Below are positions 31,263 to 63,214 of a stretch of DNA of 64,000 nucleotides, piece by piece; within the stretch, counting starts at the first letter, position 1; each line of letters begins with the position of its first letter. The translations under genes and the position numbers were made by a program. Under the pieces are notes generated by a model, which ran no database searches, had not been told where the DNA came from, and saw only the letters and a list, made by a program, of their open reading frames with translations. Origin of the DNA: Strigamia acuminata (Eukaryota); NCBI GenBank assembly GCA_949358305.1, contig OX442314.1, positions 1,426,001-1,490,000 on the forward strand, given 5' to 3'.

Positions 31263-31481
31263 CCACTTTTCCTTCCCCGACGTCTGTTTCTCATCTGGAC
31301 GTTTACCTCTTTGTCACGACACTTGGTCCTTTATCACTTCAGATTCTTGGGTCCTCGATACGGTCAAAGGGATAAAATTGGAATTTTTAAATACACCTGT
31401 TCAAACAGAATTTTGTACACCGATTTTCGACCGGGTTAAACATGAATTGATCAGAGAGGAAGTTGAGGCCATGATCCTTAA
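31225..31481 (+). pseudogene. DIRS-like pol N-terminus, interrupted at TTAA
   Basis: GRLPLCHDTWSFITSDSWVLDTVKGIKLEF...EEVEAMIL resembles the DIRS pre-RT motif (GRL..F...W...T.D.WVL....GY.LEF...E...ML.KGAI). Similarity stops at CTT AA|CCTT. Confidence 0.75.
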
Positions 31482-32334
31482 CCTTCGGAAGCGAGTGCAC
31501 CCGCAAAATCCGCACTTTGGGAGTGACTATTCCTCGGATTCCGGCCGGACCAAACTCTTCCGGAAAATGTCCGGGGGAATGCTGAGAGTGCCGATAGACG
31601 ACATTCGATTTTATGTCGTGGATTTTTGTGCGGTTTGCGCCGTGTTTATTATTCGTACGAGATTTGGTATTTTCGCAGGGTTGTTGTCGCGCGAGATTCA
31701 TCGGGGTAAAGCGAGTTCATCAACGACCTCGCCGGTGAATGTTGCTAAAAATCTGTGCAAGTGTTGTCAAATATTGCCGTGATTCGATGGAATTTTTGTC
31801 AGACATTGGGAAATTTTTTTTGACTTGTCCAACGCGCCAGTAAATCGAGCGTCCACACGCGCCCACATGCGTGAACAGTGCACTCGCCCTCCGCGCCCCG
31901 TCGGCGTAGGCGCCGGCCGTCCCCCCTTTCTCTCTCTCTCTCTCTCTTCCGCCCGGGAATCGCCCTTCCGCCCGTCACCGAATTTTGTCAATATCTGATA
32001 AATTTCCACAGAATTGCAGCGACATTGTACGGGATATTTCTGCCCGATTTGACGGACTTATGTAAAACATTGTTGAAATTCCGTGGAAATTTATAAAATA
32101 TTGACAAAGGTTGGTGACCGACCCACGGCGCGTTGCGGCGCGGTCGGAGCACGCGACCCAATCCCCCCCTCCCCCCGTCCCCAAAAAACCACGCCCCGAG
32201 GAACCCCGAGGTTCGGTTTCCGACCGGGTCGCCTCTTGATCCGACCCGGGGCGCGTCACGGCGCGGTCGGAGGACGGCCCTCGCCCCCAAAAACCACACT
32301 CCGGGTCACGTGGTCTCGCACCCGACTCTCTCAG

Positions 32335-35300
32335 TTATCCCGTTACGGCCCTTGGCCGTAACGGGCCGTTACGGGATCGTGACGGGACCGTCGGCGGCCC
32401 GTTAACGGCCCGCACGGGCCGTGACGGGATCGTGACGGGACCGTTGGCGGCCCGTTAACGGCCCGCACGCGCCGTGACGGGACCGTGACGGGACCGTCGG
32501 CGGCCCGTTAACGGCCCGTACGACTCCATGCGGGCCGTTGACGGGCCGTTAACGGGCCGTTAACGGGCCGTTAACGGCGTAAATCGAAAAAATCAACAAC
32601 CGACAACACGTACGTGAAAACGCGTACAACATTCATAGACATTAATCTCGAATCCTGTTTTTGGTTTTACGCCGTTAACGGGCCGTTAACGGGCCGTTAA
32701 CGGCCCGTTAACGGCCCGTTAACGGCCCGCGTGAGGTCGTACGGGCCGTCGGCGAGCCGAAGTCCGGGAACGAAGGCCGTGACGGGATCGTGACGGGACT
32801 GTCGGCGGCCCGTTAACGGCCCGCACGCGCCGTGACGGGACCGTGACGGGACCGTCGGCGGCCCGTTAACGGCCCGTGCGGGCCGTTGCGGGATCGTGAC
32901 GGGATCGTCGACGGCCCGTTAACGGCCCGTGCGGGCCGTTGCGGGCCGTTGACGGGCCGTTGACGGGCCGTTAACGGGCCGTTAACGGGCCGTTACGGCG
33001 TGAATCGAAAAAATCAACAACCGACAACACGTACATGAAAACGCGTACAACATTCATAGACATTAATCTCGAATCCTGTTTTCGGTTTTGCCCCGTTAAC
33101 GGGCCGTTAACGGGCCGTTAACGGGCCGTTAACGGCCCGTGCGGGCCGTTGCGGGATCGTGACGGGACCGTCGACGGCCCGTTAACGGCCCGTGCGGGCC
33201 GTTGCGGGATCGTGACGGGACCGTCAGCGGCCCGTTAACGGCCCGTGCGGGCCGTTGCGGGATCGTGACGGGATCGTCGACGGCCCGTTAACGGCCCGTG
33301 CGGGCCGTTGCGGGATCGTGACGGGACCGTCAGCGGCCCGTTAACGGCCCGTGCGGGCCGTTGCGGGATCGTGACGGGATCGTCGACGGCCCGTTAACGG
33401 CCCGTGCGGGCCGTTGCGGGCCGTTGACGGGCCGTTGACGGGCCGTTAACGGGCCGTTAACGGGCCGTTACGGCGTGAATCGAAAAAATCAACAACCGAC
33501 AACACGTACATGAAAACGCGTACAACATTCATAGACATTAATCTCGAATCCTGTTTTCGGTTTTGCCCCGTTAACGGGCCGTTAACGGGCCGTTAACGGG
33601 CCGTTAACGGCCCGTGCGGGCCGTTGCGGGATCGTGACGGGACCGTCGACGGCCCGTTAACGGCCCGTGCGGGCCGTTGCGGGATCGTGACGGGACCGTC
33701 AGCGGCCCGTTAACGGCCCGTGCGGGCCGTTGCGGGATCGTGACGGGATCGTCGACGGCCCGTTAACGGCCCGTGCGGGCCGTTGCGGGATCGTGACGGG
33801 ACCGTCAGCGGCCCGTTAACGGCCCGTGCGGGCCGTTGCGGGATCGTGACGGGATCGTCGACGGCCCGTTAACGGCCCGTGCGGGCCGTTGCGGGCCGTT
33901 GACGGGCCGTTGACGGGCCGTTAACGGGCCGTTAACGGGCCGTTACGGCGTGAATCGAAAAAATCAACAACCGACAACACGTACATGAAAACGCGTACAA
34001 CATTCATAGACATTAATCTCGAATCCTGTTTTTGGTTTTACGCCGTTAACGGCCCGCGTGAGGTCGTACGGGCCGTCGGCGAGCCGAAGTCCGGGAACGA
34101 AGGCCGTGACGGGATCGTGACGGGACCGTCAGCGGCCCGTTAACGGCCCGTGCGGGCCGTTGCGGGATCGTGACGGGATCGTCGACGGCCCGTTAACGGC
34201 CCGTGCGGGCCGTTGCGGGCCGTTGACGGGCCGTTGACGGGCCGTTAACGGGCCGTTAACGGGCCGTTACGGCGTAAATCGAAAAAATCAACAACCGACA
34301 ACACGTACGTGAAAACGCGTACAACATTCATAGACATTAATCTCGAATCCTGTTTTCGGTTTTGCCCCGTTAACGGGCCGTTAACGGGCCGTTAACGGGC
34401 CGTTAACGGCCCGTGCGGGCCGTTGCGGGATCGTGACGGGACCGTCGACGGCCCGTTAACGGCCCGTGCGGGCCGTTGCGGGATCGTGACGGGACCGTCA
34501 GCGGCCCGTTAACGGCCCGTGCGGGCCGTTGCGGGATCGTGACGGGATCGTCGACGGCCCGTTAACGGCCCGTGCGGGCCGTTGCGGGATCGTGACGGGA
34601 CCGTCAGCGGCCCGTTAACGGCCCGTGCGGGCCGTTGCGGGATCGTGACGGGATCGTCGACGGCCCGTTAACGGCCCGTGCGGGCCGTTGCGGGCCGTTG
34701 ACGGGCCGTTGACGGGCCGTTAACGGGCCGTTAACGGGCCGTTACGGCGTGAATCGAAAAAATCAACAACCGACAACACGTACATGAAAACGCGTACAAC
34801 ATTCATAGACATTAATCTCGAATCCTGTTTTTGGTTTTACGCCGTTAACGGGCCGTTAACGGGCCGTTAACGGCCCGTTAACGGCCCGCGTGAGGTCGTA
34901 CGGGCCGTCGGCGAGCCGAAGTCCGGGAACGAAGGCCGTGACGGGATCGTGACGGGACCGTCAGCGGCCCGTTAACGGCCCGTGCGGGCCGTTGCGGGAT
35001 CGTGACGGGATCGTCGACGGCCCGTTAACGGCCCGTGCGGGCCGTTGCGGGCCGTTGACGGGCCGTTGACGGGCCGTTAACGGGCCGTTAACGGGCCGTT
35101 ACGGCGTGAATCGAAAAAATCAACAACCGACAACACGTACGTGAAAACGCGTACAACATTCATAGACATTAATCTCGAATCCTGTTTTCGGTTTTGCCCC
35201 GTTAACGGGCCGTTAACGGGCCGTTAACGGGCCGTTAACGGCCCGTGCGGGCCGTTGCGGGATCGTGACGGGACCGTCGACGGCCCGTTAACGGCCCGTG

Positions 35301-36660
35301 CGGGCCGTTGCGGGATCGTGACGGGACCGTCAGCGGCCCGTTAACGGCCCGTGCGGGCCGTTGCGGGATCGTGACGGGATCGTCGACGGCCCGTTAACGG
35401 CCCGTGCGGGCCGTTGCGGGATCGTGACGGGACCGTCAGCGGCCCGTTAACGGCCCGTGCGGGCCGTTGCGGGATCGTGACGGGATCGTCGACGGCCCGT
35501 TAACGGCCCGTGCGGGCCGTTGCGGGCCGTTGACGGGCCGTTGACGGGCCGTTAACGGGCCGTTAACGGGCCGTTACGGCGTGAATCGAAAAAATCAACA
35601 ACCGACAACACGTACATGAAAACGCGTACAACATTCATAGACATTAATCTCGAATCCTGTTTTTGGTTTTACGCCGTTAACGGGCCGTTAACGGGCCGTT
35701 AACGGCCCGTTAACGGCCCGCGTGAGGTCGTACGGGCCGTCGGCGAGCCGAAGTCCGGGAACGAAGGCCGTGACGGGATCGTGACGGGACCGTCAGCGGC
35801 CCGTTAACGGCCCGTGCGGGCCGTTGCGGGATCGTGACGGGATCGTCGACGGCCCGTTAACGGCCCGTGCGGGCCGTTGCGGGCCGTTGACGGGCCGTTG
35901 ACGGGCCGTTAACGGGCCGTTAACGGGCCGTTACGGCGTAAATCGAAAAAATCAACAACCGACAACACGTACGTGAAAACGCGTACAACATTCATAGACA
36001 TTAATCTCGAATCCTGTTTTTGGTTTTACGCCGTTAACGGGCCGTTAACGGCCCGTTAACGGCCCGTTAACGGCCCGCACAGGCCGTGACGGGATCGTGA
36101 CGGGACTGTCGGCGGCCCGTTAACGGCCCGCACGAGCCGTGACGGGATCGTGACGGGACCGTCGGCAGCCCGTTAACGGCCCGTACGACTCCATGCGGGC
36201 CGTTGACGGGATCGTGACGGGACCGTCGGCAGCCCGTTAACGGCCCGCACGGGCCGTGACGGGATCGTGACGGGACCGTCGGCGGCCCGTTAACGGCCCG
36301 CACGAGCCGTGACGGGATCGTGACGGGACCGTCGGCAGCCCGTTAACGGCCCGCACGGGCCGTGACGGGATCGTGACGGGACCGTCGGCGGCCCGTTAAC
36401 GGCCCGCACGAGCCGTGACGGGATCGTGACGGGACCGTCGGCGGCCCGTTAACGGCTTGTACGGGCCGTTACGGGATCGTGACGGGACCGTCGGCGGCCC
36501 GTTAACGGCTCGCACGGGCCGTTAACGGGGTCGTTACGGGACCGTCGGCGGCCCGTGCGGCGGCCTCGCCAACCTCGTGCGGCCCGTTAACGGCCCGTAC
36601 GGGCCGTTACGGGGCCGTTGCGGGATCGTCGGCGGCCCGTTAACGGCCCGCACGGGACAA
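32335..36660. repeat. Palindromic higher-order tandem repeat
   Basis: ACGGGCCGTTAACGGCCCGT-type palindromes inside ~53-bp monomers. A ~95-bp AT-richer spacer (AATCGAAAAAATCAACAACCGAC...CTCGAATCCTG) recurs 9 times, at ~32580, 33000, 33476, 33951, 34274, 34750, 35106, 35581 and 35938. Confidence 0.95.
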
Positions 36661-38009: not shown

Positions 38010-39769
38010 CTGTAGAGAAGGAATAAATTAAATTAAATTGAATTAAATCGAAGCGCGAGCGCGGTAAAACCGAAAGAAGAAGGGGTGGAGGTGAGGAAAA
38101 GAGACCGAAGGACGAGCGAGAGGGGGGCGCTATAGTTTCACCGCACGACTCGTTGCACTATACGAATTGCCCCGAAACAAACGCCTATTTATTTCTTTAT
38201 TTTTTTTTATTTATTCATTCATTCGTTAATCTCGTCCACTCGTTAAGTTTTATCAAATTCGTTAAACTCGTTCGTCCATTCGTCAAATTGGTCGTTTCGT
38301 CTAGCGACGAGAACAACGGCGACGCTAACGTTTACGCGAGTAACTCGGTGAGTTCGTGCATTCTGCGCACGCAAAACGCGAACGCGGCCAATTGACAAAA
38401 TAACATTTTACAAGTAATGGTTTAATAATTTACCTCCGTGTGCGAAGCGCGTGTCGCGTCCATTGTGTCTGTCTGTCTGATTTTGGCGAATGAACCGACG
38501 CGACGCCCGGTGATAACAATGGCGATAATGACACGCGACGTAGCATACTTCTAGCTAAACAACAATAATAATAATAATTCATTAAAAAAATAAAATGAAA
38601 TAGAATAATTAAATAAACAAACAAAATAATAAATAGATAAATAAATAAATAAATAAATAAATAAGTCGAAAATAAATAAACTAGCGGCGGGACGGGCCGA
38701 GGTCAGAGATTTTGCTCCGTTCTCACGTCTGTCTATTCCGGGTAGAGGGAGGGAGCGAACGGGCGCGCGCCGGACATCGCTCGGAATTAAAAAACGGGTA
38801 ACGGGGGAAGACAGACAGTCGAAATTTGATTCCCCGGTCGTGGAATCGACTCCGCGACCCGTGCTTTAACGGTTAATTGGATTATCTTCGTCGTGACTTA
38901 TCGGGATAAAAATTTTATAGAAAATCGGCCGTATCGTATTTTATTTTCATCTTCCGAGGGTCTCGCGTCGTCGTTGTGGACGGGAGTCTTCCCGAACACG
39001 TTCGACGGGCTTCGCGAATGCTTTCAGATCGGACGCGGAACTCGGGCCCGCCGCTCGGTCGAGCGGCGCCAGTACCCGCCGAGCGGCGCGGTATCCGATC
39101 AAATAACTCCCTTGCTTCGTCACGGTCTCGGACTGGCCTTCGGGCCGGTCAAAATAACAAATAAATGAATAAATCGAAAATAGAACGCCCCCGTCCCGGC
39201 GAGACTAGGGGCGGGTGGCGTCGTTGAGCGGCGGCAGCGGCGGCGGTAGCCCCGACGACTCGCCCCGAAAATAAGCTCCCGCACCAGCATTCCTTCGTCC
39301 GTCTAAACCTCGCAGCGCGTGCGGTCGCGTGCATTCTACTCGTGTCCGGTGTGGCGATCGGTACAGAGTAAAAAAAAGATCACCCGAAAAAGAAAGACGA
39401 TTAAAGTTTTAATTCTCCGGTCGTGGAACCGACTTTGCGGTTCGTGCTTTAACCGTTAATTAGGTTATCTTCGTCGCGACTCGTCGTAATAAAAATTTCA
39501 CAGAAAATCAGCCGTTTCGTATTTTATTTTCATCTTCCGGGGGTCTCGCGCCGTCGTTGTGGACGGGAGTCTTCCCGAACACGTTCGACGGGTTTTGCCG
39601 ACACTTTCAGATCGAATGCGGAACTCGGGCCCGTCGCTCGGTCGAGCGGCGCCAGTACCCGCCGAGCGGCACGGTATCCGATACCCGTCTTTTTTAAACC
39701 TCCCTTGCTTCGTCGGTCTCAGACTGGCCTTCGGGTCGGTCAAAATAAATAAATAAATAAATAAATGAA

Positions 39770-39820
<51 letters not shown>

Positions 39821-42625
39821 GTAGGTCGGGAAATAGAACGCGTTCGTCCCGGCGAATAGTGGCAGCTGGGGTCGTCGAGTGAGTGGCGGCGGCAGCGGCA
39901 ACCTCGATGACTCGCCCCGAAAATAAAGTCCCGCGTCGGCATCCCTTCGTGCGTCCTTCGTCCGTCTAATCCTCGCAGCGCGTGCGGTCGCGTGCATTCT
40001 ACTCGTGTCCGATGTAGCGACCGGTACGAGGTAAAAAAAATATCACACGAAAAAGAAAGACGATTAAAATTTTAATTCTCCGGTTGTGGAACCGACTTCG
40101 CGGTTCGTGCTTTAATCGTTAATTAGATTATCGTCGTCGCAATTTATCGGAATAAAATTTTTACGGAAAATTGACATTTCCGTATTTCATTTTCATCTTT
40201 CGGGGGTCTTGCGCCGTCATAATCGGAGCGAGTCTCGCTCGATGCGTTCGACGGACTTTGTGGGAGTTTCCAGATCGCCAGCGGAACGAGGGGCCGTGGC
40301 TCGTCCGAGCGGCGCAGTACCCGTCGAGTGGCGCGGTACCCGAGTTCTTGCATCCAACGGTGGACACATCTTTGTCGAGAGCACCTCTCGGTCTCAGACC
40401 GGCCTTCGGGCCGGTCAAAAAAAATAAACAAATAAATAAATAAATAAATAAATAAACGAGTCGGCGAATAAAGGCGGTTGGGGTCGCTGGACGGTGGCGG
40501 TGGTGGTGGCAGCGGCAACCCCGACGACTCGTCGCAAAAGATAAGCTCCCGCGCCGGCATCCGTTTGCTCGTCTAAACCTCGCAGTGCGCGTGCGGTCGC
40601 GTGCATTCTACTCGTGTCCGATGTGGCGATCGGCATAGATCACCCGAAAAAGGAAAGACGATTAAAATTTTAATTCTCCGGTCGTGGCACCGACTTTGCG
40701 GCTCGTGCTTTAACCGTTAATTAGGTTATCTTCGTCGTAATTCGTTGGAATAAAATTTTTATAGAAAATCAGCCGTTATGCATTTTATTTTCATCTTCCG
40801 GGGGTCTCGTGCCGTCGTAGTAGGCGTTAGTTTCAATCATCGCGTTCTACGGATTTTGAGGGGATCCTCAGATCGAGACCAAAGTGAGAGGGCCGTCGCC
40901 CCCGTCTCGTGCGCCGCTCGATCCCCGTTGGATGACAAGATGGCATTCGCCTCTCCCACCCGAGGATCGGTCGGTGGTGCGGTATTTATGCTTGTGCACC
41001 AAATGGGTGGTCGACAGGTCCCCAATCGGTCTCGGGCTCAGACTGGCCTTCGGGCCGGTCAAAATAACAAATAAATGAATAAATCGGAAATAGAACGCTC
41101 CCGTCCCGGCGAGACTAGGGGCGGGTGGCGTCGTTGAGCGGCGGCAGCGGCGGCGGTAGCCCCGACGACTCGCCCCGAAAAAAGGCTCCCGCACCGGCAT
41201 TTCTTCGTCCGTCTAAACCTCGCAGCGCGCGTGCGGTCGCGTGCATTCTACTCGTGTCCGGTGTGGCGATCGGTACGGGGTAAAAAAAAAATATTACACG
41301 CAAAAGGAAAGACGATTAAAATTTTAGTTCTCCGGTCGTGGAACCGACTTTGCGGTTCGTGCTTTAACCGTTAATTAGGTTATCTTCGTCGCAACTCGTC
41401 GTAATAAAAATTTCACAGAAAATCAGCCGTTTCGTATTTTATTTTCATCTCACGGTGGTCTGGCGCCGTCATAGTCGACGGAAGTCTCTCCGAACACGTT
41501 CAACGGGCTTCACGAACGCTTTCAGATCGAATGCGGAACTCGGGCCCGCCGCTTGGTCGAGCGGCGCAGTACCCGCCGAGCGGCGTGGTAGCCGGGTTCT
41601 CGCGTATGGCGATAGGGGGTCCTTTCTAAACAAACACCTCTCTCGGTCTCAGACTGGCCTTCGGGTCGGTCAAAATAATAAATAAATGAATCGGAAATAG
41701 AACGCACCCGTTCTCGCTCGGTCTACCGGCGAATGGGAGCAGTTGGGGCCGTTGAGCGGCGACGACAGCAGCCCTAACGACTCGTCCCGAAAATAAGTTT
41801 CCGCACCGACATCCGTTCGCTTATTTAAACCCCATGACGCGCGCGTGGTTGCCTGCATTTTTCGGCTTGTTTCGACACGTTTCGACGTCGACGCGCGACC
41901 GTGAGCAAAGTCCTCAGCAACATATGGACATGAGTGTGTCTTTGCTCGCGATCTACGCGTTTGAGCGCGTTACGACGCGCGATAATGCACGTGATGCGAT
42001 GGGGGTGAGCGCGACACGGGCTTTTGGCGCGGGCGTCGGTAATGATGTCCGTCAACGTGGATGAATGTCCGCGAAGTGTTTGGTGTTTATGGCAACGCAC
42101 CAGGACGCAATTAACAACCAACAAGAATTAAAAATATAACTGTTTAACAAAAAGAAACTCCTATAATGTTGAAACAATAAAGAAAACGCAAAATTCAGAT
42201 TCAAATTTAGATTTGAATTAGGTCAGATTAGGCCAGGTTGTAGATCCACAGACTCTCGAGACGACAACAAGAAAATAAAAAGGATGCGTTTATCGTTTGT
42301 AGGTAGAATCTCGCGCCGAGTTAAATAAAAGTCTTTAAAAAATAGAAATCGATTTCCCGGTCGTAGAATTAATTTTGTGTCATGTGATCCAGTCATTAAT
42401 TAGATTTTCGTGGTAGATGTTGCGTGAAACAAGATCGTGAACGTCTCAATTGGTTTACGATTTAAATTTCATCTCGCAATACACGCTGCACCAACGTAGT
42501 CGACGCGAGTTTATATCACTGCACTCGATGGGTTTTGTGAGCATTTTTAGACCAATCGATCGTACAGCTTGTTTGCTAGTCTTCCTTTCGAGGTCAGTAG
42601 TTAACTCTTTGCACTCAATCTGTAC

Positions 42626-45600
42626 TGTCGCATACCGACATTGTTGATTATACACATTATCAAATACCATTGTATCCGATTTCACAATATTGAACAATTA
42701 CTTGGTTGTCAGGCTCACAACCCTGACAACCAAATTGTTATTACCTTTTCCGAATATTAAATAAACAGTCTGACTCAAAATCTCTTTCAAGAAACATCTC
42801 ACTAATGCCATGCCCAAAGACATGGCATTCTATTTCGGCCCCAAATCTTCAAGTATAAATCTATAAGTGGATCACACATACAGATCACACATTGGCGTCG
42901 TGATCGTTTCGAATTTGTGTTTTGACAATTCATCTGGCCTGAAAGATAAGTGTTTTTGCGCCATATTATCGTGAAATAAATTCACTTATGCCTTTTATCA
43001 GTTTTGGAATGCGTATTCGACTGTAGTGTAAAGACTTTCATCAACATGGCAGTTGTGGATTCCGCACGATTCACCAAGAGCGCAGAAGCAAACCATTGAC
43101 GGCGAACATTCGGGACGTCGTCTGCTAATTTTTCCAGTTTCGCGAACGTCAGTCGAACGTCGCTTCACCGCCTTTCAATGCGAACGTCGGTCGAACGTCG
43201 CTTCACCGCCTACCAACGCGAACGTTGGTCGAACGTCGTTTCATCGCCTTCCAACGCCAACGTCGATCGAGCATCGATTCGCCGCCTGTGAGTCCGACGC
43301 GAACGTCGGTTGAACATTGTATCACTGCACGAAATTGGATCCACCGCCGCTTTGCTCGAATGCTCCGTCGAATCGGGACCACAGGCATCTCAACGCCGGA
43401 TGAACGTCGTTTTTTCTTGGTTATCTTCAGAATGCAGATAAGACTTTTGAATTTATTGTGTATTAATTTTCACTCGTGTCATTGATGAGGTTGGACGATG
43501 CGCAGTTCCAAGGCTTAGTGCCCATTGCACCCACGTCTTCCAAATGAGTCTTCACCAGTGGTCAGCGGCGATTTTTTGCATCACATCATCTTAAATCCTG
43601 GCGGACCCCACCGAGGATAACAAGGTGGTCATGACTCTTCCCCCGGCGGCCCCTGCCGGTTCTGTTCCACCAGCTTTATTGGGAATTCCCGTGCCTTTCG
43701 TGGGCTCCACTGCGGAGGATTGGGCACTCTATTTAGAGCATTTTGAGCAGTTGGTCTCTCTCAATGACATTCCTGCCTCAAAAAAGCGTGCTTTTCTTCT
43801 CTCAGTGGTTGGTGCACCTACATACCAACTAGCCCACAATTTATTTGCACCAAGCAAGCTCTCTAGCCAGACTTTCCTCGACATCACCAAGAAACTCCAG
43901 GAACATTTCACCCCTGCACCGAGGCCAGTGGTTCAGCGTCACTTGCTGGGTTCCCGCGTGCGTGCGCCAGATGAATCGATGAGCAACTACATCGCGGCAT
44001 TGCGGGGCCTGGCGGAAAGGACTGGCGCCACGACAACGGATCAGATCGAGCAGCTGGTCCTTGACCAATTAATCAGGGGAGTCGGTGTCGAGCAGCTCCG
44101 CCAGAAGCTACTTGGTGAAGAAAACCTGACCTTGGACAAGGCCTCATCAATGGCCATAGGTTTTCAGGCTGCCACTCAGGGCAACGCCATTTATAAGTCT
44201 TCCGCAACCGTTCCGATGCAACATTTTTCTGCAAACCACCCCCCCCAAGCAGCACTTTTCCAGCTTCAGACCACCGCCTCATCGAATCAGCAACCATCTA
44301 GGCCCAGGCTTCCATTCGCCAAATCAAGTGGCAGGTCCCCACGACAAGGGTTTCAGGACGGCTCCCGAATGCCCGCGCAAGCAGCTGGACCACCAATGCG
44401 TCCAATGCAGCCTTCTGGGTCCAGGGCGTTGTGTAACGGATGCGGTCAGACACATGCTCGATCGGTCTGCCCTTTTCAGACCGCCGTGTGCCGCACGTGT
44501 GGCCGCACTGGACACATCGCTGCTGTTTGCAGAAATGGACAGCCATCGCCGCAGAACCTTCTCCGTGCCACACGATTTGGCCCTGGACAATCCACAACAC
44601 CCCAAGCCACTGGGACTTTTGGTCGCCGACCGTCGCCGCCTCCTCGTTTTCGTCAGCTGACCTCACCTATGAATTACGTGGCCGCACAGCCGATGTTGGG
44701 TCAGCAGTGGACAGTTGACGGGCCCCTCGACTTTCAGCATTCATCTATTGGCCAACCTGTGTCATCTGGGCCGCTTTCCAACGTGGTTAGCGGTCAGAAC
44801 TCTAATGTCCCGCCATCAATTTTTTCACCCGCACCTATTTTAAATAATGCCAATGTCAATCAGGTATATGCTAACGAACCTGGCCTAAATCCGGATTACT
44901 CACTATATTACCTCAAGAGTGACAAATGTCTACTCCCACCCATAGTGGTTGAGGCTCATGTTAATCATATTCTTCTCTATTTTCAGTTGGATACGGGGTC
45001 CGAGTACACCGTTATGGGATCAGATGCTTTGGCTTCCATCGAGCAACACAGTAACCAGGTGGTAAGGCGGTACCCTCCCGCGATTAATTTATTCGCGTAC
45101 CCCCACGTTTCGATTCCTTTGCTGGGGATAGCTATGATGACAGTCACCGTCCAGGCCACCACAGTTAGGATGCCCATAGTGGTTACTCGTGACCCTGGTC
45201 CACCCGTCATGGGACGCGATTCAATCGCACGTTTTGGTTTAATACCGGGGTTGGCATATGCCTTTGACGATGCATTGTGCATTAGCTCGTTAATTCATCA
45301 AGATGGCGAGAGCTTATCATCAATTGCACTTCATTTGACTGCTCTTTCGAGCGCCATACATAGCGTTTCACCTCAGGTTGGTCCCAACATTTTTAATTTA
45401 TCGAAGGTCGAGTCGGCCTCCCTTCCTCAGTCTCCCGATGCAATTGCGCATTACATTATGCAAAAATACGATGCAGTTTTCCAGCCTGGTATTGGGACTT
45501 ACACAGGCCCCCCGGTTGATTTGCATGTTCAGCCGGGGACGCGCCCGTTGTTCTTTCGCCCGAGACCTATCCCACATGCCAAGCGACCTTTGGTTGACCT

Positions 45601-48600
45601 GGCAATTGACCAATTGATTAGCCAGGGGGTTTTTCGGCCCATTCAGCATTCTGAGTGGGCCACCCCATTGGTTGTTGTTACAAAGGCCAATGGGGGTTTG
45701 CGTTTGTGTGGGGATTATAGAGCTACCGTTAATCGATTTATTCTCCCTGATCCCTACCCCTTGCCATTGGTCGCTGACCTGTTAGCCGGGCTGGCCAACG
45801 CAAAGTATTTTACACTCTTAGACTTGAGGCAGGCTTATCAACAAATACCACTAACCGTCCGCTCATCGTTGCTGGTGGCGGTCAACACCCATCGAGGTCT
45901 TATGGCGGTTACGCGCTTGCCTTCCGGCACCGCACCGTCTTCCGGAATTTTCCAGCGCATAGTGGATGGAATTTTTCGGGGTGTGCCCTGGGTTTCCGTC
46001 TATCAAGACGACATACTAGTGGCGACCCCAACCCTGGAATTACATCTCCACACTCTAGTCCTAGTGTTCGACAAACTTGCCAACAAGGGCTTGCGAGTTT
46101 CGCATGACAAGTGTCAATTGGTGAAAACAAGTGTCCAATATTTGGGCCATTTCTTGACACAGCAGGGCATCACCCCTGCCCTTTCTAAGGTGCAGGCTGT
46201 GCTAAATTGCCCTTCACCTACAACTGTCACCACACTCAAGTCCTTTCTTGGCATGGTCGTATACTATGCCTCCTACGTTCCGCGCATGGCCCACCTCTCC
46301 GCTCCCCTCTACGCGCTTTTGCAGAAGGAAGCGGAATGGGTGTGGGGCCCTAAGCAACAGGCGGCTTTTCAACAGCTAAAAGACATTTTAGCTTCGCCAG
46401 AGGTTCTCACCTACTATGATTTGACCAAACCACTATTGTTAATTTGTGATGCATCCCCTTATGGCCTTGGAGCCGTCCTTGCACACAAATTTAGTGATGG
46501 CTCAGAGCGTCCTGTTGCGTATGCGTCGCGTACCTTGTCTTCAGCTGAGCAGAATTATGCTCAGTTGGACAAGGAGGCAGCGGCTATTGTGTTCGGGTTA
46601 AAGAAATTCCATAGCCACTTGTCTGGCACTTTCGTTTCCATATTTACCGATCATAAGCCCCTCCTTGGCATACTGGGACCTGATAAACCCATCCCAAATA
46701 TCATCAGCCCTAGGCTCTTGAGGTGGGCGTTGTTGTTAAGCACCTACCATTATGCCTTGATATATAGACCCGGTGCTCAGCTGAGAGAGGCGGATGCTTT
46801 GAGTCGTCTTCCATTGCCCGCCCCAGATGTGCCGGCGGCTGAGTTTGATGCCGCTTACCCTACCGACATCCGAATGTTGTCTGCGTCTGGCTCCGCATAT
46901 ATTACCAGGGAACGTTTGGTTCAGGCCACTTTGGCCGACCCCCTTCTCCAGTCTTTGGCGTCTTACGTCACCGCTTCTTGGCCCGCTTTGCGTCCTGCTG
47001 CTGTTCCGTCACCTTATTGGCAGCGCAGGCAAATGATGTCTCTTGCGCACCAGCTCCTTTTTGTGAACGACCGTGTCATTGTGCCACTGTTCCTGGTCCC
47101 GGATTTGCTTCAATCCCTGCATTTCCATCATGTGGGAATTGTGGCGATGAAGCGCCGGGCCAGGCCTTTTGTTTGGTGGCCCGACATGTCTCGTCATATC
47201 GAGCAATTCGTGGCGCAGTGTCATCCCTGCCAACAAACGCGTCCCCTGTCTCCCCGCGCGCCACTGGTGTCTTGGCCGGCCCCTGACGGCCCCTGGGATA
47301 GGATTCACGCCGATTTGGCCGGGCCTCTCCACGGCACTATGTTTTTGGTCGTGGTTGATGCGTTTTCTGCCTGGATAGAGGTTGCGGCCATGCGGACTAC
47401 CGTATCCGCTGCCATCATTACGGTTTTACGGCGACTTTTTGCCACCCACGGGTTGCCTCGGGTCCTGGTCACGGACAATGGTCCCCAGTTTAGCTCCGCC
47501 GAGATGGGGGAGTTCACCCGGGCCAATCATGTTAAGCATTTGTTTTCTCCACCGTACAGCCCTTGGTCTAATGGTCAAGCCGAGCGTGCTGTGCGGTGGA
47601 CAAAGGAGCAGTTATCTCGTGCCTCATCCAATAGATGGGACTTGGTCATTCCTCGTATCTTGATGACCCAACACGCCACTCCTTCTAGACTGGACGGGGT
47701 CTCTCCATCCGTTCGCCTTTTTAATCGCCAAATTGCCGATGTGTGGCATCAGTTGGTTCGGTCTTGGGCGGTCGCGACCCACCTCCGGTCGCCTGGGGCG
47801 GTTGTGCCTTCAGCTTTGCGCCTCCCTATTGGGGCGCCTGTCTGGTATCGAGTTTTTCTCGCGCGCTCGTTCAAGTGGGCTAGGGGTTCAGTGATTGCTG
47901 TGCGGGGTGAAGTGGTATATGAGATTCGTACCGACTCCGGGGAGGTCATCATTCGACATTTAAACCATTTGCGCAAATTTCAGGGGGAAACCCTCAGCCT
48001 CCCCTCCACCTTAACCCCGGCAACCACAGCGCCTCCCTCTACGCGCGCCCTACCAGCCATTCTCTTACCATCTAATACCTTGGCCCCCCATGGTGGTGCC
48101 GCGATAGATTTTGCTGCGAGACCCCGGCCTACTGTTTTACCTGCAACTCAGGCATCTGTTTCCAGCTCACCACTTTCATCTGCTTTCACTTCACCTCATA
48201 CCTCGGCAGGAAACTCTTCAGGAAATTTATCTGCTGAACTACATCTTTCATCCAGTTCCACCCCCCCTAATTCACCTCATGAATCACCTTTATCTCCATC
48301 AATTCGACCCTCATCATCATTAGTTAGACTAATATTAGATGCCGATCGTCAAGCTCCTACATTTCCGGATCAAATGGTCAGCGGGTCTGGACCATCATCG
48401 CAGGTCGCGACAGTCTCCACACCTGTACCTGTCCAGCCCACTTCATCTGTTCTGCTTGATCCGGCTTTGCTTACACAGCGCCTGCGTGCCATACTGCAAA
48501 AAGACCAGCAGCCTCCAGCTCAGCCCACCGGTCCACCTGACACCACATCATTGCGCAGATCTGAGAGGCTCAAACAACTACCTGGACACCCGAAGCAGAA

Positions 48601-48892
48601 TGTGCCTAAACAATAGGGGGGAAGGGTGTCGCATACCGACATTGTTGATTATACACATTATCAAATACCATTGTATCCGATTTCACAATATTGAACAATT
48701 ACTTGGTTGTCAGGCTCACAACCCTGACAACCAAATTGTTATTACCTTTTCCGAATATTAAATAAACAGTCTGACTCAAAATCTCTTTCAAGAAACATCT
48801 CACTAATGCCATGCCCAAAGACATGGCATTCTATTTCGGCCCCAAATCTTCAAGTATAAATCTATAAGTGGATCACACATACAGATCACACA
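42626..48892 (+). mobile_element. Full-length Ty3/Gypsy (Mag-like) LTR retrotransposon
   Basis: 266-bp LTRs at 42626-42891 and 48627-48892 (TG...CA, identical by eye), 5-bp TSD TGTAC, PBS-like TGGCGTC after the 5' LTR, PPT AGGGGGGAAGGG. Confidence 0.97.
43631..48616 (+). CDS. gag-pol: Single gag-pol polyprotein (gag, CCHC knuckles, protease, RT, RNase H, integrase)
   Basis: CRTCGRTGHIAAVC, LDTGS, YQDD, CDASPYG, VVDAFS...TDNGPQF...AERAV; uninterrupted ORF. Confidence 0.96.
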   Translation: MTLPPAAPAGSVPPALLGIPVPFVGSTAEDWALYLEHFEQLVSLNDIPASKKRAFLLSVVGAPTYQLAHNLFAPSKLSSQTFLDITKKLQEHFTPAPRPVVQRHLLGSRVRAPDESMSNYIAALRGLAERTGATTTDQIEQLVLDQLIRGVGVEQLRQKLLGEENLTLDKASSMAIGFQAATQGNAIYKSSATVPMQHFSANHPPQAALFQLQTTASSNQQPSRPRLPFAKSSGRSPRQGFQDGSRMPAQAAGPPMRPMQPSGSRALCNGCGQTHARSVCPFQTAVCRTCGRTGHIAAVCRNGQPSPQNLLRATRFGPGQSTTPQATGTFGRRPSPPPRFRQLTSPMNYVAAQPMLGQQWTVDGPLDFQHSSIGQPVSSGPLSNVVSGQNSNVPPSIFSPAPILNNANVNQVYANEPGLNPDYSLYYLKSDKCLLPPIVVEAHVNHILLYFQLDTGSEYTVMGSDALASIEQHSNQVVRRYPPAINLFAYPHVSIPLLGIAMMTVTVQATTVRMPIVVTRDPGPPVMGRDSIARFGLIPGLAYAFDDALCISSLIHQDGESLSSIALHLTALSSAIHSVSPQVGPNIFNLSKVESASLPQSPDAIAHYIMQKYDAVFQPGIGTYTGPPVDLHVQPGTRPLFFRPRPIPHAKRPLVDLAIDQLISQGVFRPIQHSEWATPLVVVTKANGGLRLCGDYRATVNRFILPDPYPLPLVADLLAGLANAKYFTLLDLRQAYQQIPLTVRSSLLVAVNTHRGLMAVTRLPSGTAPSSGIFQRIVDGIFRGVPWVSVYQDDILVATPTLELHLHTLVLVFDKLANKGLRVSHDKCQLVKTSVQYLGHFLTQQGITPALSKVQAVLNCPSPTTVTTLKSFLGMVVYYASYVPRMAHLSAPLYALLQKEAEWVWGPKQQAAFQQLKDILASPEVLTYYDLTKPLLLICDASPYGLGAVLAHKFSDGSERPVAYASRTLSSAEQNYAQLDKEAAAIVFGLKKFHSHLSGTFVSIFTDHKPLLGILGPDKPIPNIISPRLLRWALLLSTYHYALIYRPGAQLREADALSRLPLPAPDVPAAEFDAAYPTDIRMLSASGSAYITRERLVQATLADPLLQSLASYVTASWPALRPAAVPSPYWQRRQMMSLAHQLLFVNDRVIVPLFLVPDLLQSLHFHHVGIVAMKRRARPFVWWPDMSRHIEQFVAQCHPCQQTRPLSPRAPLVSWPAPDGPWDRIHADLAGPLHGTMFLVVVDAFSAWIEVAAMRTTVSAAIITVLRRLFATHGLPRVLVTDNGPQFSSAEMGEFTRANHVKHLFSPPYSPWSNGQAERAVRWTKEQLSRASSNRWDLVIPRILMTQHATPSRLDGVSPSVRLFNRQIADVWHQLVRSWAVATHLRSPGAVVPSALRLPIGAPVWYRVFLARSFKWARGSVIAVRGEVVYEIRTDSGEVIIRHLNHLRKFQGETLSLPSTLTPATTAPPSTRALPAILLPSNTLAPHGGAAIDFAARPRPTVLPATQASVSSSPLSSAFTSPHTSAGNSSGNLSAELHLSSSSTPPNSPHESPLSPSIRPSSSLVRLILDADRQAPTFPDQMVSGSGPSSQVATVSTPVPVQPTSSVLLDPALLTQRLRAILQKDQQPPAQPTGPPDTTSLRRSERLKQLPGHPKQNVPKQ

Positions 48893-51800
48893 TGTACGAG
48901 TCGCGGTAGCCGGGTTCTTGCATTCTATGATGCTGTTGGTTCCAACGGCGATACGCGTCTCCCGCCTCTCGGTCTCAGACTGGCCTTCGGGCCGGTCAAA
49001 AAAAAAGAAAAAAATTAATAAATAGATAAATAAGTCGGGAACAAAACGCATCCATCCCGACGAATAGTGACAGTTGGGCTCGTTGAGCGGCGGCAGCGGC
49101 GGCGGTAGCCCCGACGACTCGCCCCGAAAATAAGCTCCCGCACCGGCATTTCTTCGTCCGTCTAAACCTCGCAGCGCGCGTGCGGTCGCGTGCATTCTAC
49201 TCGTGTCCGGTGTGGCGATCGGTACGGGGTAAAAAAAAAAATATTACACGCAAAAGGAAAGACGATTAAAATTTTAATTCTCCGGTCGTGGAACCGACTT
49301 TGTGGTTTGCGTTTTAACCGTTAATTAGGTTATCTTCGTCGCACTTTATCGCAATAAAAATTTTATAGGAAACCCGCCGCTCCGCATTTTATTTTCACCT
49401 CCCGGGGGTCTTGCGCCGTCGTATTCGATGGCAGTCGCCTTCGGTGCGTTCAATTGACCCCGTGAGTGCTTTCGGATCGAGACCGATGTGAGAGGTCGAC
49501 ATTCACGCCCCGACGATCGGTGCGGACCACTGGCATTTTTTCACCCATCCGTTTATCGGTCGTCGGTCCGATGCACGCTCCAGCCAGTGATTTTGTCGAC
49601 GGGTCTCCGAGAGCGGTCTCGGTCTCAGACTGGCCTTCGGGCCGGTCAAAATAATAAATAAATAAATAAATAAATAAATGGATCGGAAATAGGTCGCACC
49701 CGTCCCGGCGAGAATAAGGGTGGGTGGCGTCGTTGAGCGACGTCAGCGGCAGCGACGTCAGCGGCAGCGACAGCCCCGACGACTAACTCGCCCCGAAAAT
49801 AAGGTCCTGCGCCGGCATCCGTTCGTTCGTTCAAACCTCGCAGCGCTCGTGCGGTCGCGTGCATTCTACTCGTGTCCGACGTGGCGATCGGTACGGAGTA
49901 AAAAAAAAAAGATCATCAGAGAAAGGAAGACGATTAAAATTTTAATTCTCCAGTCGTGGCACCGACTTTGCGGTTTGTGCTTTAACCGTTAATTAGGTTA
50001 TCTTCGTTGTGGCAGATTCGAATAAAAGTTTTACAAAATAATCGTCGTTTTACATTTTTAAATCATTTCCCAGGGACCGTGTACCGTCGCAGTCGATGCG
50101 AGTCCCGGTCATCGCATCCGATAGACATTGCGGACGTTTTTCAGATCGAGACTGGAGTACCTGTTGAGTACCAAATGGCCGGTCGGTCGTTGGTGTGGTT
50201 CCGTCTCCTAAAATGTTCGTCGCCATTTTCTGTTGGTCGAGTCGCCTACCATCCAATGGTCGGTCGGTGGGTCTCGGTCTCAGACTGGCCTTCGGGCCGG
50301 TCAAAATAACAAATAAATGAATAAATCGGAAATAGAACGTCCCCGTCCCGGCCAGAATAGGGGCAGGTGGTGTCGTTGAGCGGCGTCAGCGGCAGCGACA
50401 GCCCGGACGAATCGCCCCGAAAATAAGGTCCTGCGCTGGCATCCGTTTGTTCGTTCAAACCTCGCAGCGCTCGTGCGGTCGCGTGCATTCTACTCGTGTC
50501 CGACGTGGCGATCGGTACGGAGTAAAAAAAAAAAAGATCATCAGAGAAAGGAAGACGATTAAAATTTTAATTCTCCGGTCGTGGCACCGACTTTGCGGTT
50601 CGTACTTTAACCGTTAATTAGGTTATCTTCGTCGTAATTCGTTGGAATAAAAATTTTATAGAAAATGAGCCGTTTCGTATTTTATTTTCATCTTCCGGGG
50701 GTCTCGCGCCGTCGTTGTGGACGGGAGTCTTCCCGAACACGTTCGATGGGTTTTGCCAACACTTTCAGATCGAACTCGGGACTCGGGCCCGCCGCTCGGT
50801 CGAGCGGCGCACAGTACCCGCCGAGCGGCGCGGTATCCGATATAAAAGGACCCTTGCTTCGCCACGGTCTCAGACTGGCCTTCGGGCCGGTCAAAATAAT
50901 AAATAAATAAATAAATAAATAAGTCCGAAAATGGAACGTATCCGTCCCGACGAATAGATGCGGTTGGGGTCGTTGAGCGACAGCGGCGGCAGCGGCAGCC
51001 CCGACGACTCGCCCCGAAAATAAGCTCCCTTACCGGCATTCCTTCGACCGTCTAAACCTCGCAGCATGCGTGCGGTCGCGTGCATTCTACTCGTGTCCGA
51101 TGTGGCGATCGGTACGAGGTAAAAAAAATATCACACGAAAAAAGAAAGACGATTAAAATTTTAATTCTTCGGTCGTGGGACCGACTTTGCGGTCCGTGCT
51201 TTAACCGTTAATTAGGTTATCTTCGTCGTAATTCGTTGGAATAAAAATTTTATAGAAAATGAGCCGTTTCGTATTTTATTTTCATCTTCCGGGGGTCTCG
51301 CGCCGTCGTTGTGGACGGGAGTCTTCCCGAACACGTTCGATGGGTTTTGCCAACACTTTCAGATCGAACTCGGGACTCGGGCCCGCCGCTCGGTCGAGCG
51401 GCGCACAGTACCCGCCGAGCGGCGCGGTATTTGATACCCGTCTCTGTAAAAGCAGCCGTGCTTTTTCGGTCTCAGACTGGCCTTCGGGCCGGTCAAAATA
51501 ATAAATAAATAAGTCGAGAATGGGCCACCGCCGGCCGGTGGGGCCAATCGTCGCGGGTGGGTGGGGCAGGCAGCCAACCGTCCACCGATCGATCGATCGA
51601 TTGATTGATCGACCGACCAATCAATCGGTTTTCAGATTTCGGGTTTTCACGGGTCCCAGGTTTTTCAGGTTTTTCAGATTTTTCAGATTTCAGATTTCAG
51701 ATTTCAGATTTCAGATTTCACATCGAATAATGTACGGAGTCTCTTCGGTGCCATTCTCATTTTGACCGTTAAGGACAGACAGACTGCTCCTCGACCAGGA

Positions 51801-54051
51801 CCGACTAATGCGACAACTAGACCCGTCGCCCGTCGCGCGAGCCCGCCTCATTTTTTTCGCTCGTTTATTCACGCTTAGTTTTAAGAAAAATTTTCAAATT
51901 TTACAAATGTACACAAATAAAAAGACCGTTTACTTTTCGCTCCAATTGTTTATTCTTTATACGCCTTTACAACTCTTACGAGAAGATAAATAGAAAGCGA
52001 GAAAATATAATCGATCAACCACGCCGTCGGCGCCTAACCCGAACCCGTAGTCCCCGCTTCGTTCTTCTCCTCCCCGTTCACGGGACGGGCCGAACACCGA
52101 ACACCGAGCGCCGAGCGCTGCGCGGGCACCTGGTGGCGCAACCGGGCAACATGACGCGGCACGATTCAAAACGCCGATCGTTTATTCGTTTCATTTTATT
52201 TTGTTTCGTTTCGTTTCATTTTATTGTTTCACTTTGTTTTATTTTGTTTCATTTTTTCTTTTTAATTCGCATCGCCGAGCGTCGCGTCGCAGCGCCGTGA
52301 CATCGAGGTGAACAGCGGATCAAGCTTTTTCCCGCCATTGTTGTGCCCTTCTCCTTCTTCGCGACGCACACGCGTACATATATCGGTTCGCTGGACTCCG
52401 TAGAGTGGGAAAAACAAACAAACAAACAAACAAAAAAAAAACGAACAAACGAGTAAGTAAGGCTATCCAATCGCATTATTTCTTAAAAAAAAAACAAACA
52501 AACGAGAGAAGAAACGGAACGGGCGAATAAAAACGGCGTGCCATGCGGGACAGCGTGCGTGAGCACGGAGGAGGGGGGAAACCCCGTCGATATCAAACGA
52601 CTAGATTCAACGTTGGTTTTGTGGTTACTACTCGCGGCGCTATTATTTGTCCGTCCGTTCGTCCGTTAATCGGTCTAATGAATTAACCAATTAATTGATT
52701 AAACGACCAATTCGTTTATAAGTAGGCGATTGATCGACGAAAATGGACGACGAGCAACGAGGAGTGGGCGAAGAACGGACGGGAGTGAACCCCGAGGGCG
52801 GAGGTGTCACGGAGACCCACGCGGAAACAGGCGCCGAGGAGGTGGTGCACGTTTTGTCGTCGCCGAACGGAACAGCGGGAACCGAGAGCGCGGACCCGGG
52901 TGCCAGCCAGTCGTTTCCGAGCACGTTGTCCGGATTGGAAGGTGTACGCAAACCCCGTCCAATGTAAGTACCACGGCGCGACCGGGTTCGTGCGGGATAC
53001 CATTTACATTCGTTTTCGTTTTTCGATAGACGACTCGACAGCGACAACGACGACGACAGCGACAATGGCAATGGCAACAACGGCGGTGGCGGCGACAACG
53101 GCAACGGCGGCAACGAAGCCAACGACGGCAACAGCGGCGGTGACGGGGCAACGGGGCGCGAGGTCGAAGCCATGCAAGCCAAGATCAACACCCTGGAAGT
53201 TGAACTGGAAGAATTGAGGTCGAACCTCGCCAACCACGGCGAAAGACTGGGGGCTCTCGAGGCGATGCTCCCAGTCCCTCCCAGCGGGTCGCAGTCGCAA
53301 CAAACAGACTTTGGCTCCTACGACTCTGCGAAGGTGAGCAACGGCGCCCGCCCGTGTCGTCGATTCACTCGTTTTTTCTTCTTCTTCTTCTTCTTCTTCT
53401 TCTTCTTCGTTCAGGACAAGCCCGTTCACAGCAGGGTGGGGATGTGTTGGCTGTGCCGCAGGAAGCGCGCGAACTACGCCTACGACGACGACGACGGCGA
53501 CGGCGACGACGACGACGGCGATGGGGGCGGATGGAAACCGGCTGGCCCACTCAAGGACATTGGCGATCACTGGCGGAGTGTGCACACCGTAGCCAGAGAC
53601 TTTGAGGCGGCCAGGCAATTGCTGCGCGGCCACATCGGCACATTCGACGGCTTTTGCCAGGTACGTATGTATGCATGTGTTTCCTCGCGCGGTCTCTCGG
53701 TGTCGTCGCTGAACAAATCGTATGTTTTTGTTTTTTTTGTTTTTTTTACCCGACAGGAACTGTTTTCGACGACGGAGCACGCGTCCGACTGCCCTTTGTG
53801 CGACACGCAGCCGGATGACCTGAGGCAACATCTTTGGACGAAACATAAATTTTACGTACCGATCGCGACGATAAGGTCGAGCATCGACCAAAGGGGATGC
53901 GACGAACCGAAACTACCGGCGCCGAAACGCCCGGCGCCGCAACGTGTCCCGGATCAACCGAAACGACGAAAGGGCGAGGCAGAAAAGAAGGTGAAAGAAA
54001 AACGCCTCGGTTTATTCGTTCGTTCATTGATTATTTTAATTTTTTATTCAC

Positions 54052-54183
<132 letters not shown>

Positions 54184-54500
54184 ACACACACACACAGGTA
54201 GTCATCCCAGTAGAACAAAGCAACTTGGACCTGATGAAGGAAGGGTACACGAAGTGGATGTCGAACGTGCGTGACTGACTCGCGTCGAGGACTCGATCAA
54301 TCTATCGATCGAATTGACTCGTTCGTTTTCTTTTTCAGGAAGCCATCGACATGGTGCAACAACGCCCGGTGCTGGATCTCCTCTTCGGAAAGGACAAAGT
54401 CAGGGGCTTGTTTTCCATGCCCGCTTCTTTCCCTTCCCCGCGTCCCTCTCCTCTCGCTGGTACCTTTCGCATTGCCCCCGCTGCTGCAACTGCTCTTCGC

Positions 54501-54860
54501 ACCGCCGAGCAACGCGCCAAATCCGCCGCCGAGCAACGCGCCAAATCCGCCGCCGAGCAACGCGCCAAATCCGCCGCCGAGCAACGCGCCAAATCCGCCG
54601 CCGAGCAACGCGCCAAATCCGCCGCCGAGCAACGCGCCAAATCCGCCGCCGAGCAACGCGCCAAATCCGCCGCCGAGCAACGCGCCAAATCCGCCGCCGA
54701 GCAACGCGCCAAATCCGCCGCCGAGCAACGCGCCAAATCCGCCGCCGAGCAACGCGCCAAATCCGCCGCCGAGCAACGCGCCAAATCCGCCGCCGAGCAA
54801 CGCGCCAAATCCGCCGCCGAGCAACGTGCCAAACCCACCACCGAGCAACGCGCCAAATCT
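54501..54860 (+). repeat. Coding 24-bp tandem repeat, (SAAEQRAK) x ~15
   Basis: GCCGCCGAGCAACGCGCCAAATCC units in frame within exon 6. Confidence 0.95.
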
Positions 54861-55368
54861 ACTGTTGTTGCCGCTAAACACGCCGGATCCATTAAACGTG
54901 CAGACGACAATAGCAACAGCAGCAGCAGCAGCGGCGGCGACGACGACGGCGCCGAGGACAGTGGTGCCGACCTCTTCACCGGCGCCCGCCCCGATCGTGG
55001 TGCCGGTGCCGGTGCCACCAGCAAGTCCCGAGAATACGACGTCGACCTCTCGCGCGATCCCATCACCGTACGCGGCTTCACTTTCGTGCGTAGTCGGGTA
55101 CCCGGCATCCCGCTCGTCCGCGACGACGACGATGATGAGGAACGCGCTCGCCGCGAAGTCCGCAAGAAGAACCGCGCGAAGGTAGAGTGCGAAGGCCAAA
55201 TGATCCGCGCACAGAGTCGCGAGATACAGCGTCGGCGAGAAAGTGAGTTCGAACTCGAACACGCCGAACACGAGCCCTCGCCCGGGCACAGTCGCGGCAC
55301 CGGGTCGCGGTCGCGGTCGCGGTCGCGGTCGCAATCGCGGTCGCAGTCGCAGTCGCGGTCGCAGTCGC

Positions 55369-63167: not shown

Positions 63168-63214
<47 letters not shown>

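Follow-up and report, generated by a model that had tools for sequence, protein, structure and literature searches.

A tandem array of ten units, each encoding a putative small structured RNA, was found in a 64,000-nt stretch of the Strigamia acuminata genome (contig OX442314.1, positions 1,426,001 to 1,490,000). This whole stretch is called the window, and positions are counted from its first letter. The array is a real, selected feature outside every family tested. Each unit carries a UUCG hairpin, GACYGGCC-TTCG-GGYCGGTC, and all ten hairpins lie on the + strand, as the original prediction of a ten-unit array with a constant hairpin had stated. We tentatively regard the units as independent RNA polymerase II (Pol II) small-RNA genes on a DNA transposon, whose abundant products would act as protein decoys. 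That the units are transcribed RNA genes is probable; provided that they are, we lean slightly towards decoy activity as their role. Carrying whole sets of dedicated small structured RNAs is a strategy of viruses, exemplified by the herpesvirus saimiri U RNAs (HSURs) and the adenovirus virus-associated (VA) RNAs. If the proposed reading is true, transposons would have an RNA-based route to blunt host silencing, and this could help to explain the high copy number of elements larger than 20 kb. No description of such a transposon-borne array was found in the open-access literature; Repbase and Dfam were not searched. With ten natural variants on one scaffold, handle, promoter and bound protein are directly testable.

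The 3' ends of the hairpins lie at 39150, 39741, 40416, 41060, 41671, 48997, 49647, 50302, 50892 and 51494. Their spacing is 590-675 nt, in line with the unit length of about 600 bp first given, except between units 5 and 6, where it amounts to 1,054 nt after subtraction of an insert. Each unit consists of four parts: a 198-nt upstream block, a folded segment of 125-191 nt, an AATAAA-rich tract and a freely drifting spacer (Table 1). The terminal motif described in the original prediction is exact in 8/10 units (0/100 shuffles), with a different linker in unit 1 and one different stem base in unit 4. Likewise, YCAGATCG is exact in eight units, while an A is replaced by G in unit 7, and the sequence in unit 6 is TAGACC. 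The A-rich (TAAA)n tail was recovered as an AATAAA word 3-20 nt 3' of the hairpin in all ten units. A covariance model built from nine units recovered the array units and the right half of unit 6 (50 bits); beyond the ten units, it found no match above 6 bits in the window.

Protein coding of the units was ruled out, since no reading frame is open across all of them and their conservation carries no codon-phase signal (p 0.63-0.98); the absence of a common frame had been noted before. The statement that the units belong to no known family also held. Rfam 15 gave no match at gathering score in the window and five at E 0.9-4.2, none of which lies on a candidate RNA. ARAGORN found no tRNA, and no tRNA-, 7SL- or 5S-derived head was found with ARAGORN and Rfam. 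The handle had no exact match in metagenome, viral or prokaryote collections, and an upstream motif had none in metagenomes.

Closing stem, handle and bodies

The first six bases of the folded segment pair with the six bases before a 2-nt linker and thereby form a closing stem, P1. The predicted pairing of AGATCG with CGGTCT was borne out: six of six pairs are formed in eight units and five of six in the remaining two. In the type II units 4, 7 and 8, P1 is extended to 11-12 positions. Formation of P1 varies with the assumed start of the RNA. With a start at AGATCG its probability is at least 0.5 in 7/9 units, compared to 4/9 for a start at -76, 1/9 at -141 and 0/9 at -198. The 3' strand of P1, the linker and the hairpin make up a 28-nt handle, in which 3 substitutions were observed among eight units, while 12 were predicted from the spacer rate (Poisson p 0.002).

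The bodies enclosed by P1 are variable, as had been claimed, and measure 91-157 nt (about 100-150 nt in the original prediction). Their overall identity is 34-88%, and they fall into two paralogous types. Type I bodies are 59-88% alike, with one group of pairs at 57-58%, and have two inner hairpins in common. Type II bodies are 48-61% alike, and identity between the types is 34-49%. Between 56% and 71% of the body positions are predicted to be paired. The longest unpaired run is 4-24 nt, and runs of up to 16-24 nt occur in a variable linker of the type I units 1, 2 and 5. Unit 7 forms a long stem (z -4.1). In a search confined to the window, the best body matches elsewhere were 14-15 nt long and none was convincing; the upstream blocks likewise had no convincing match there.

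The type I consensus fold reached a structure conservation index (SCI) of 0.75, which was equalled by column shuffles in 0/80 cases on the + strand and 8/80 on the - strand. Consensus folding is confined to the segment from AGATCG to the hairpin. For the spacer, 31/50 shuffles were as good, and spacer hairpins, which were also considered, did not beat shuffles. Among the non-Watson-Crick variants in the helices, 12 read as G-U on the + strand and 2 on the - strand (p 0.013). Whole-RNA folding of three units gave modest z-scores of -0.5, -1.9 and -2.1. The evidence for structure comes from conservation and from one-sided changes; covariation lends it no support.

Upstream block and transcription signals

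Within the 198-nt upstream block, all ten units together show 3 one-base gaps versus 192 substitutions. When the same eight units are compared, the ratio is 1 gap per 133 substitutions for the block versus 13 per 105 for the spacer (Fisher p 0.0004), some of the spacer gaps falling within slippery repeats. Conserved islands in the block lie at fixed distances. Motif A is 45 nt from the TTAATTAG island in 9/9 units measured, this island is 71 nt from TTTTCATC in 8/8, and TTTTCATC is 80 nt from YCAGATCG in 8/8. The diverged segment of fixed length in the original prediction thus exists; it extends over the whole 198 nt, not just the last 80. Even unit 6, which has no spacer in common with the other units, retains the 198-nt spacing despite 39-65% identity. 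Its homology begins at -200, in register, and is seen as islands at -190, -150, -80 and -60 to -40.

No common fold was found for the upstream block on the + strand (SCI 0.35, p 0.35). A conserved hairpin in its last 80 nt was considered, as single units fold there. It was rejected as a common structure (SCI 0.23, p 0.47), with 17 mismatch types and wobbles numbering 12 versus 10 on the two strands; its basal stem alone is possible. Because the islands keep fixed distances without a common fold, we read the block as promoter DNA, probably recognized by factors at fixed spacing.

The centre of the proximal sequence element (PSE) lies 50-55 nt upstream of the start, according to the accessible part of PMC1761439. 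Two combinations would fit this distance: a start at AGATCG (+1) paired with the proximal island, or one at -142 paired with motif A. Motif A carries 5/7 invariant letters of the Drosophila PSEA. A start at +1, the purine of AGAUCG, has a pyrimidine|purine step in 10/10 units and is a plausible choice, falling a little short of probable. The position -77, where CA occurs in 10/10 units and is preceded in 5/10, at a distance of about 30 nt, by a TATA-like word, is a less likely start. A start at -142 is unlikely; unit 6 lacks the A at this position. A hypervariable 12-nt patch at offsets -131 to -120 (e.g. 39478-39489) sits between two conserved islands and differs even among units that are 98% alike further on. 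It would constitute a 5' guide-like segment if the RNA began at -142.

Runs of T4-T6 are present within 4/10 bodies, and the first T4 after the hairpin follows at 135-329 nt. These internal runs, together with the lack of T4 within 135 nt of the hairpin, are evidence against Pol III. A B-box pattern is matched at 7/7 letters in 3/10 units and at 5-6 letters in the others, and it overlaps P1. An Sm site (RAU3-6GR) was found in 0/10 units. Pol II transcription with a poly(A)-type or Integrator-type 3' end is proposed.

Proposed role, alternatives and related systems

In the proposed mechanism, each unit would be a separate Pol II gene giving rise to a folded RNA of 125-191 nt. The 198-nt block would serve as promoter, transcription would start at the purine of AGAUCG (alternatively at about -77 or -142), and the 3' end would form at the hairpin or just beyond it, via the AATAAA tract. 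The handle, with its two similar short helices and UUCG loop, would dock one protein, and the largely paired bodies would contribute double-stranded bulk. Ten genes, multiplied by many element copies, could provide a dose sufficient to titrate the docked protein. This target would be a host RNA-binding or silencing protein, and the likely piggyBac-type carrier would benefit. Viral examples of such activities are given in the accessible part of PMC4378190: VA RNAs act through their abundance, inhibiting PKR and loading Dicer, flaviviral sfRNA is likely a Dicer decoy in arthropods, and among the HSURs, which are Pol II-made and resemble small nuclear RNAs (snRNAs), one destroys a host microRNA by pairing.

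The bodies are paralogous, mostly predicted to be paired and seemingly frozen across copies, and dose-driven decoys therefore fit better than acquired guides. Across copies of units 7 and 8 (1,051 nt), 10 substitution sites at a frequency of at least 3% are listed, of which 0 fall in the unit 7 RNA, 1 in the unit 8 body and 0 in the handles, contigs being prone to drop rare variants. The guide role put forward in the original prediction is disfavored by the two paralogous body types, the extent of pairing and the near invariance of these two units. A CRISPR-like guide array was likewise disfavored, as the bodies of 91-157 nt are not fixed-length, unpaired foreign spacers. By proximity, the product of a zinc-finger and arginine/serine-rich (RS) gene of the carrier is a candidate partner of the RNAs.

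Several observations weigh against the decoy genes proposed here. P1 is weak in unit 3 (0.19) and unit 9 (0.32). Type II folds beat column shuffles on both strands (0/80 each), and when type I bodies are taken without the handle, neither strand is preferred (3/80 on +, 1/80 on -). The wobble count leans to the + strand because the helices were chosen on that strand. Of the claim that hairpin variants keep pairing on the + strand, the G-U bias stands, while true compensatory pairs are absent: two-sided change was seen in 0/14 scaffold pairs, and the hairpin variants are one-sided. Significant covariation of the scaffold, for which a check had been suggested, was not found, the score being matched or exceeded by shuffles in 500/500 cases. 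The upstream block gave an SCI of 0.27 on the - strand (nominal p 0.03). Its strict 198-nt spacing exceeds the 50-55 nt that a PSE needs, the proximal island is just 54-72% alike between the most distant units, and no U/GU-rich element was seen by eye after the AATAAA tract. Finally, a pure decoy would not require ten different bodies.

In a rival explanation, the bodies confer specificity. The small RNAs would then pair with host RNAs or chromatin, or be diced, and the handle would load an effector, possibly the zinc-finger/RS protein of the element. We consider this doubtful, although ten distinct bodies were kept while the spacers were homogenised (79-94% alike), and although the open linkers of units 1, 2 and 5 and the long stem of unit 7 could serve such a function. 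Pairing with host microRNAs is also described for HSURs (accessible part of PMC4378190). However, the unpaired runs of 4-24 nt offer no segment of fixed length, the bodies are paralogues and not captured foreign pieces, matches elsewhere in the window do not exceed 14-15 nt, and the repertoire of units 7 and 8 looks frozen across copies. A stronger version, in which a transposon-encoded ribonucleoprotein system loads the RNAs via P1 and the UUCG handle onto the zinc-finger/RS/PHD-like protein and the bodies aim it at host RNAs or loci, disarming silencing or biasing inheritance, is unlikely. If it were true, it would extend RNA-programmed counter-defence, which is known from viruses and was found for no transposon in the literature searched.

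The units could also be parts of a DNA element without a stable RNA product, with protein-binding sites at fixed spacing and a stem-loop acting as single-stranded DNA, terminator or insulator. G-T pairs are tolerated in DNA hairpins, the strongest constraint concerns length in a block without conserved fold, and the carrier also has palindromic subterminal repeats. Yet cUUCGg is a loop stable in RNA, and neither the longer P1 of 11-12 bp that three dissimilar bodies of type II have in common nor the AATAAA tract right after each hairpin is accounted for, which makes this explanation quite unlikely. About as unlikely in our estimate is a single long + strand RNA whose units would be separated by poly(A) cleavage at the AATAAA tract and by splicing or trans-splicing at the YAG that precedes ATCG, with the upstream block as intron or outron. 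Unit 7 has no AG and nevertheless the best P1 stem, no common GT donor was seen in the alignment, and introns have no reason to hold exactly 198 nt; in its favor, YAG is present in 9/10 units with pyrimidines before it, and AATAAA lies 3' of every hairpin.

We regard as least probable a neutral internal tandem repeat or tandem remnant of a short interspersed nuclear element (SINE), with folds due to GC richness and conservation due to gene conversion. Head-to-tail units, contig joints suggesting gain and loss of units among copies, modest whole-RNA z-scores (-0.5 to -2.1) and the lack of two-sided covariation agree with it. The even drift along the unit that a neutral satellite would show was not observed, however: indels are suppressed in the upstream block and the handle is conserved in excess. 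In addition, unit 6 retains islands, spacing, P1 and hairpin though its spacer is lost, and there is no tRNA or Rfam head.

Compared with known systems, the array may work like HSURs or VA RNAs and yet belongs to neither. HSURs 1-7 also represent several small RNAs of one selfish element, and they have Pol II promoters and 3' signals of the snRNA type (accessible part of PMC4378190), which are proposed for the array. With Sm-class snRNAs and HSURs the array shares a 3' terminal stem-loop (10/10 units). Unlike HSURs it has no Sm site (10/10), an AATAAA tract after the hairpin and a long closing stem; the element that carries it has the appearance of a DNA transposon with spliced genes rather than of a herpesvirus. 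VA RNAs and the Epstein-Barr virus EBERs are highly structured RNAs of about 160 nt that act by dose as decoys of proteins binding double-stranded RNA, and they provide our working model. They are, however, Pol III products with U-rich ends (accessible part of PMC4378190 for both statements), whereas the array has T runs inside four bodies and none after the hairpin. VA RNAs and EBERs have two genes, the array ten diverged ones.

The array also lies outside 7SK, telomerase RNA, SINEs and guide arrays. In 7SK, the 5' end pairs just before the 3' hairpin. P1 of the array would pair the 5' end in the same position, with a GAUC word in the helix (compare the accessible part of PMC8406779). In contrast to 7SK, the candidate RNA is much shorter and has no U tail, a single GAUC (in P1) and no Rfam match. 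Terminal hairpins, (TAAA)n tails and tandem units inside an element are known from SINEs and transposon-internal tandem repeats; the array differs in lacking a tRNA, 7SL or 5S head and in its part-specific constraints on length and pairing. A telomerase RNA template was looked for among nine bodies, of which just one contained a 5-nt template word.

Carrier element and nested retroelements

The array probably lies in a giant piggyBac-type element with its left end at 31478, an assignment made from one end (Table 1). An inverted repeat is present within 700 nt after this end. PiggyBac elements use a TTAA site with a CC terminus. Kolobok elements also target TTAA, while their terminus begins with RR (accessible part of PMC9587614). 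Including two nested retrotransposons, the carrier extends over more than 32 kb of the window. The giant mobile element of the original prediction was supported as a large repeated carrier, identified from one end and contig depth; no transposase was found among 15 frames scanned in the window, and the right end lies beyond it. Teratorn, a fusion of piggyBac and herpesvirus, is a comparable giant of the piggyBac type, the left end of the carrier being TTAA|CC. The carrier differs in showing no viral gene or transposase in the window and in its invertebrate-like host, and the accessible part of PMC6431247, from which the description of Teratorn is taken, describes no small-RNA array.

Table 1. 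Positions of the array units, their parts and surrounding features in the window
Feature	Position	Strand	Remarks
Unit 1	38827..39150	+	upstream block 38827-39025; candidate RNA 39026-39150, 125 nt, type I
Unit 2	39410..39741	+	upstream block 39410-39608; candidate RNA 39609-39741, 133 nt, type I
Unit 3	40073..40416	+	upstream block 40073-40271; candidate RNA 40272-40416, 145 nt, type I
Unit 4	40671..41060	+	upstream block 40671-40869; candidate RNA 40870-41060, 191 nt, type II
Unit 5	41325..41671	+	upstream block 41325-41523; candidate RNA 41524-41671, 148 nt, type I
Unit 6	42350..48997	+	most diverged; upstream block 42350-42548; split by gypsy element
Unit 6 candidate RNA	42549-42625 plus 48898-48997	+	177 nt in two pieces
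Unit 7	49275..49647	+	upstream block 49275-49473; candidate RNA 49474-49647, 174 nt, type II
Unit 8	49943..50302	+	upstream block 49943-50142; candidate RNA 50143-50302, 160 nt, type II
Unit 9	50568..50892	+	upstream block 50568-50766; candidate RNA 50767-50892, 126 nt, type I
Unit 10	51162..51494	+	upstream block 51162-51360; candidate RNA 51361-51494, 134 nt, type I
Motif A, distal conserved island (unit 2)	39410..39430	+	start of unit 6 homology
TTAATTAG island (unit 2)	39456..39477	+	hypervariable 12-nt patch next
TTTCATC island (unit 2)	39527..39535	+	its A (-77) is an alternative start
Proximal conserved island (unit 2)	39548..39570	+	centre about 50 nt before AGATCG; putative snRNA-type PSE position
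P1 5' strand (unit 2)	39609..39614	+	closing stem; preferred RNA start
3' handle (unit 2)	39714..39741	+	P1 3' strand, 2-nt linker, 8-bp cUUCGg hairpin
(TAAA)n tract with AATAAA words (unit 2)	39742..39820	+	
Inter-unit spacer	39827..40072	.	79-94% alike, indel-rich, without conserved fold
Probable left end of carrier	31478..31500	+	TTAA then CCTT; GC 0.40 to 0.54
Subterminal array	32361..36556	.	11-bp and 53-bp GC-rich palindromic repeats of carrier
Probable spliced carrier gene	52743..63768	+	interrupted by copia element
Gypsy long terminal repeat (LTR) retrotransposon	42626..48892	+	6.27 kb, inside unit 6 body

Contig depth was taken from two public runs of one study, X1 and X2, and serves as a hint at ratios, not as a copy number. 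Even coverage of spacers and gypsy interior suggests that both runs represent DNA. No run of RNA was listed among the public runs containing the array, which says nothing on expression. In X1, two contigs unique to the element had depths of 11,956 and 16,457, unit-specific contigs 10,495-13,465 and the main gypsy interior 464-567; in X2, depths were 23,129-24,000 versus 982-1,245 for the gypsy interior. Unit-specific contigs are thus as deep as other element-unique contigs and 20-30x deeper than the gypsy interior, and the carrier is apparently high-copy. Contigs that skip the gypsy element had depths of 12,767 and 2,431 in X1 and 9,957 in X2, so that unit 6 is likely whole in most element copies. 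Contig joints hint at gain and loss of units among the copies. In X2, a loose end before the handle at window position 50272 matches, by eye, no unit in the window. It comprises 12 records with an agreement of 0.65 and is maybe a blend; other copies may hold more unit types.

The probable spliced carrier gene downstream of the array would encode a protein that begins with an acidic region and has C2H2-like fingers, an 8-amino-acid repeat in about 15 copies, an RS-rich stretch and, by eye, a PHD-like cysteine pattern; no homolog was found for it. Searches with the carrier proteins gave no relatives beyond weak matches (scores below 0.9, one match of 23 residues and a sub-threshold zf-Di19). A second probable spliced carrier gene (37170-38009, - strand) is low-complexity, acidic and directed away from the array; it had no convincing Pfam match. 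The 4.2-kb subterminal array is of higher order, with palindromes centred on GTTAAC and a recurring AT-rich unit of 100 nt.

The gypsy element has identical 266-bp LTRs, TGTAC at both flanks and an intact frame of 1,673 amino acids. A second, diverged gypsy variant (87 differences in 693 nt) is present in both sequencing runs. An intact copia element (55369-62683, - strand) with identical 549-bp LTRs has inserted into the CpG-rich carrier gene, in its RS-repeat region. It shows a weak MBD match (E 0.019), PF01429 being present in 9 of 120 listed relatives, one of them from a spider, and it is similar to CopiaMBD elements, a family described from a centipede and from spiders in the accessible part of PMC6673714, which is a weak hint at an arthropod. 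Three DEG/ENaC (ASC) channel gene fragments of the host were observed at 8803-27614 (- strand), in the AT-rich left half of the window, and place it in an animal genome; a search with one channel fragment gave no relatives. Frames at 29535-31477 (+ strand), which have no Pfam support, resemble by eye the beginning of a DIRS-type retroelement that is truncated at the TTAA.

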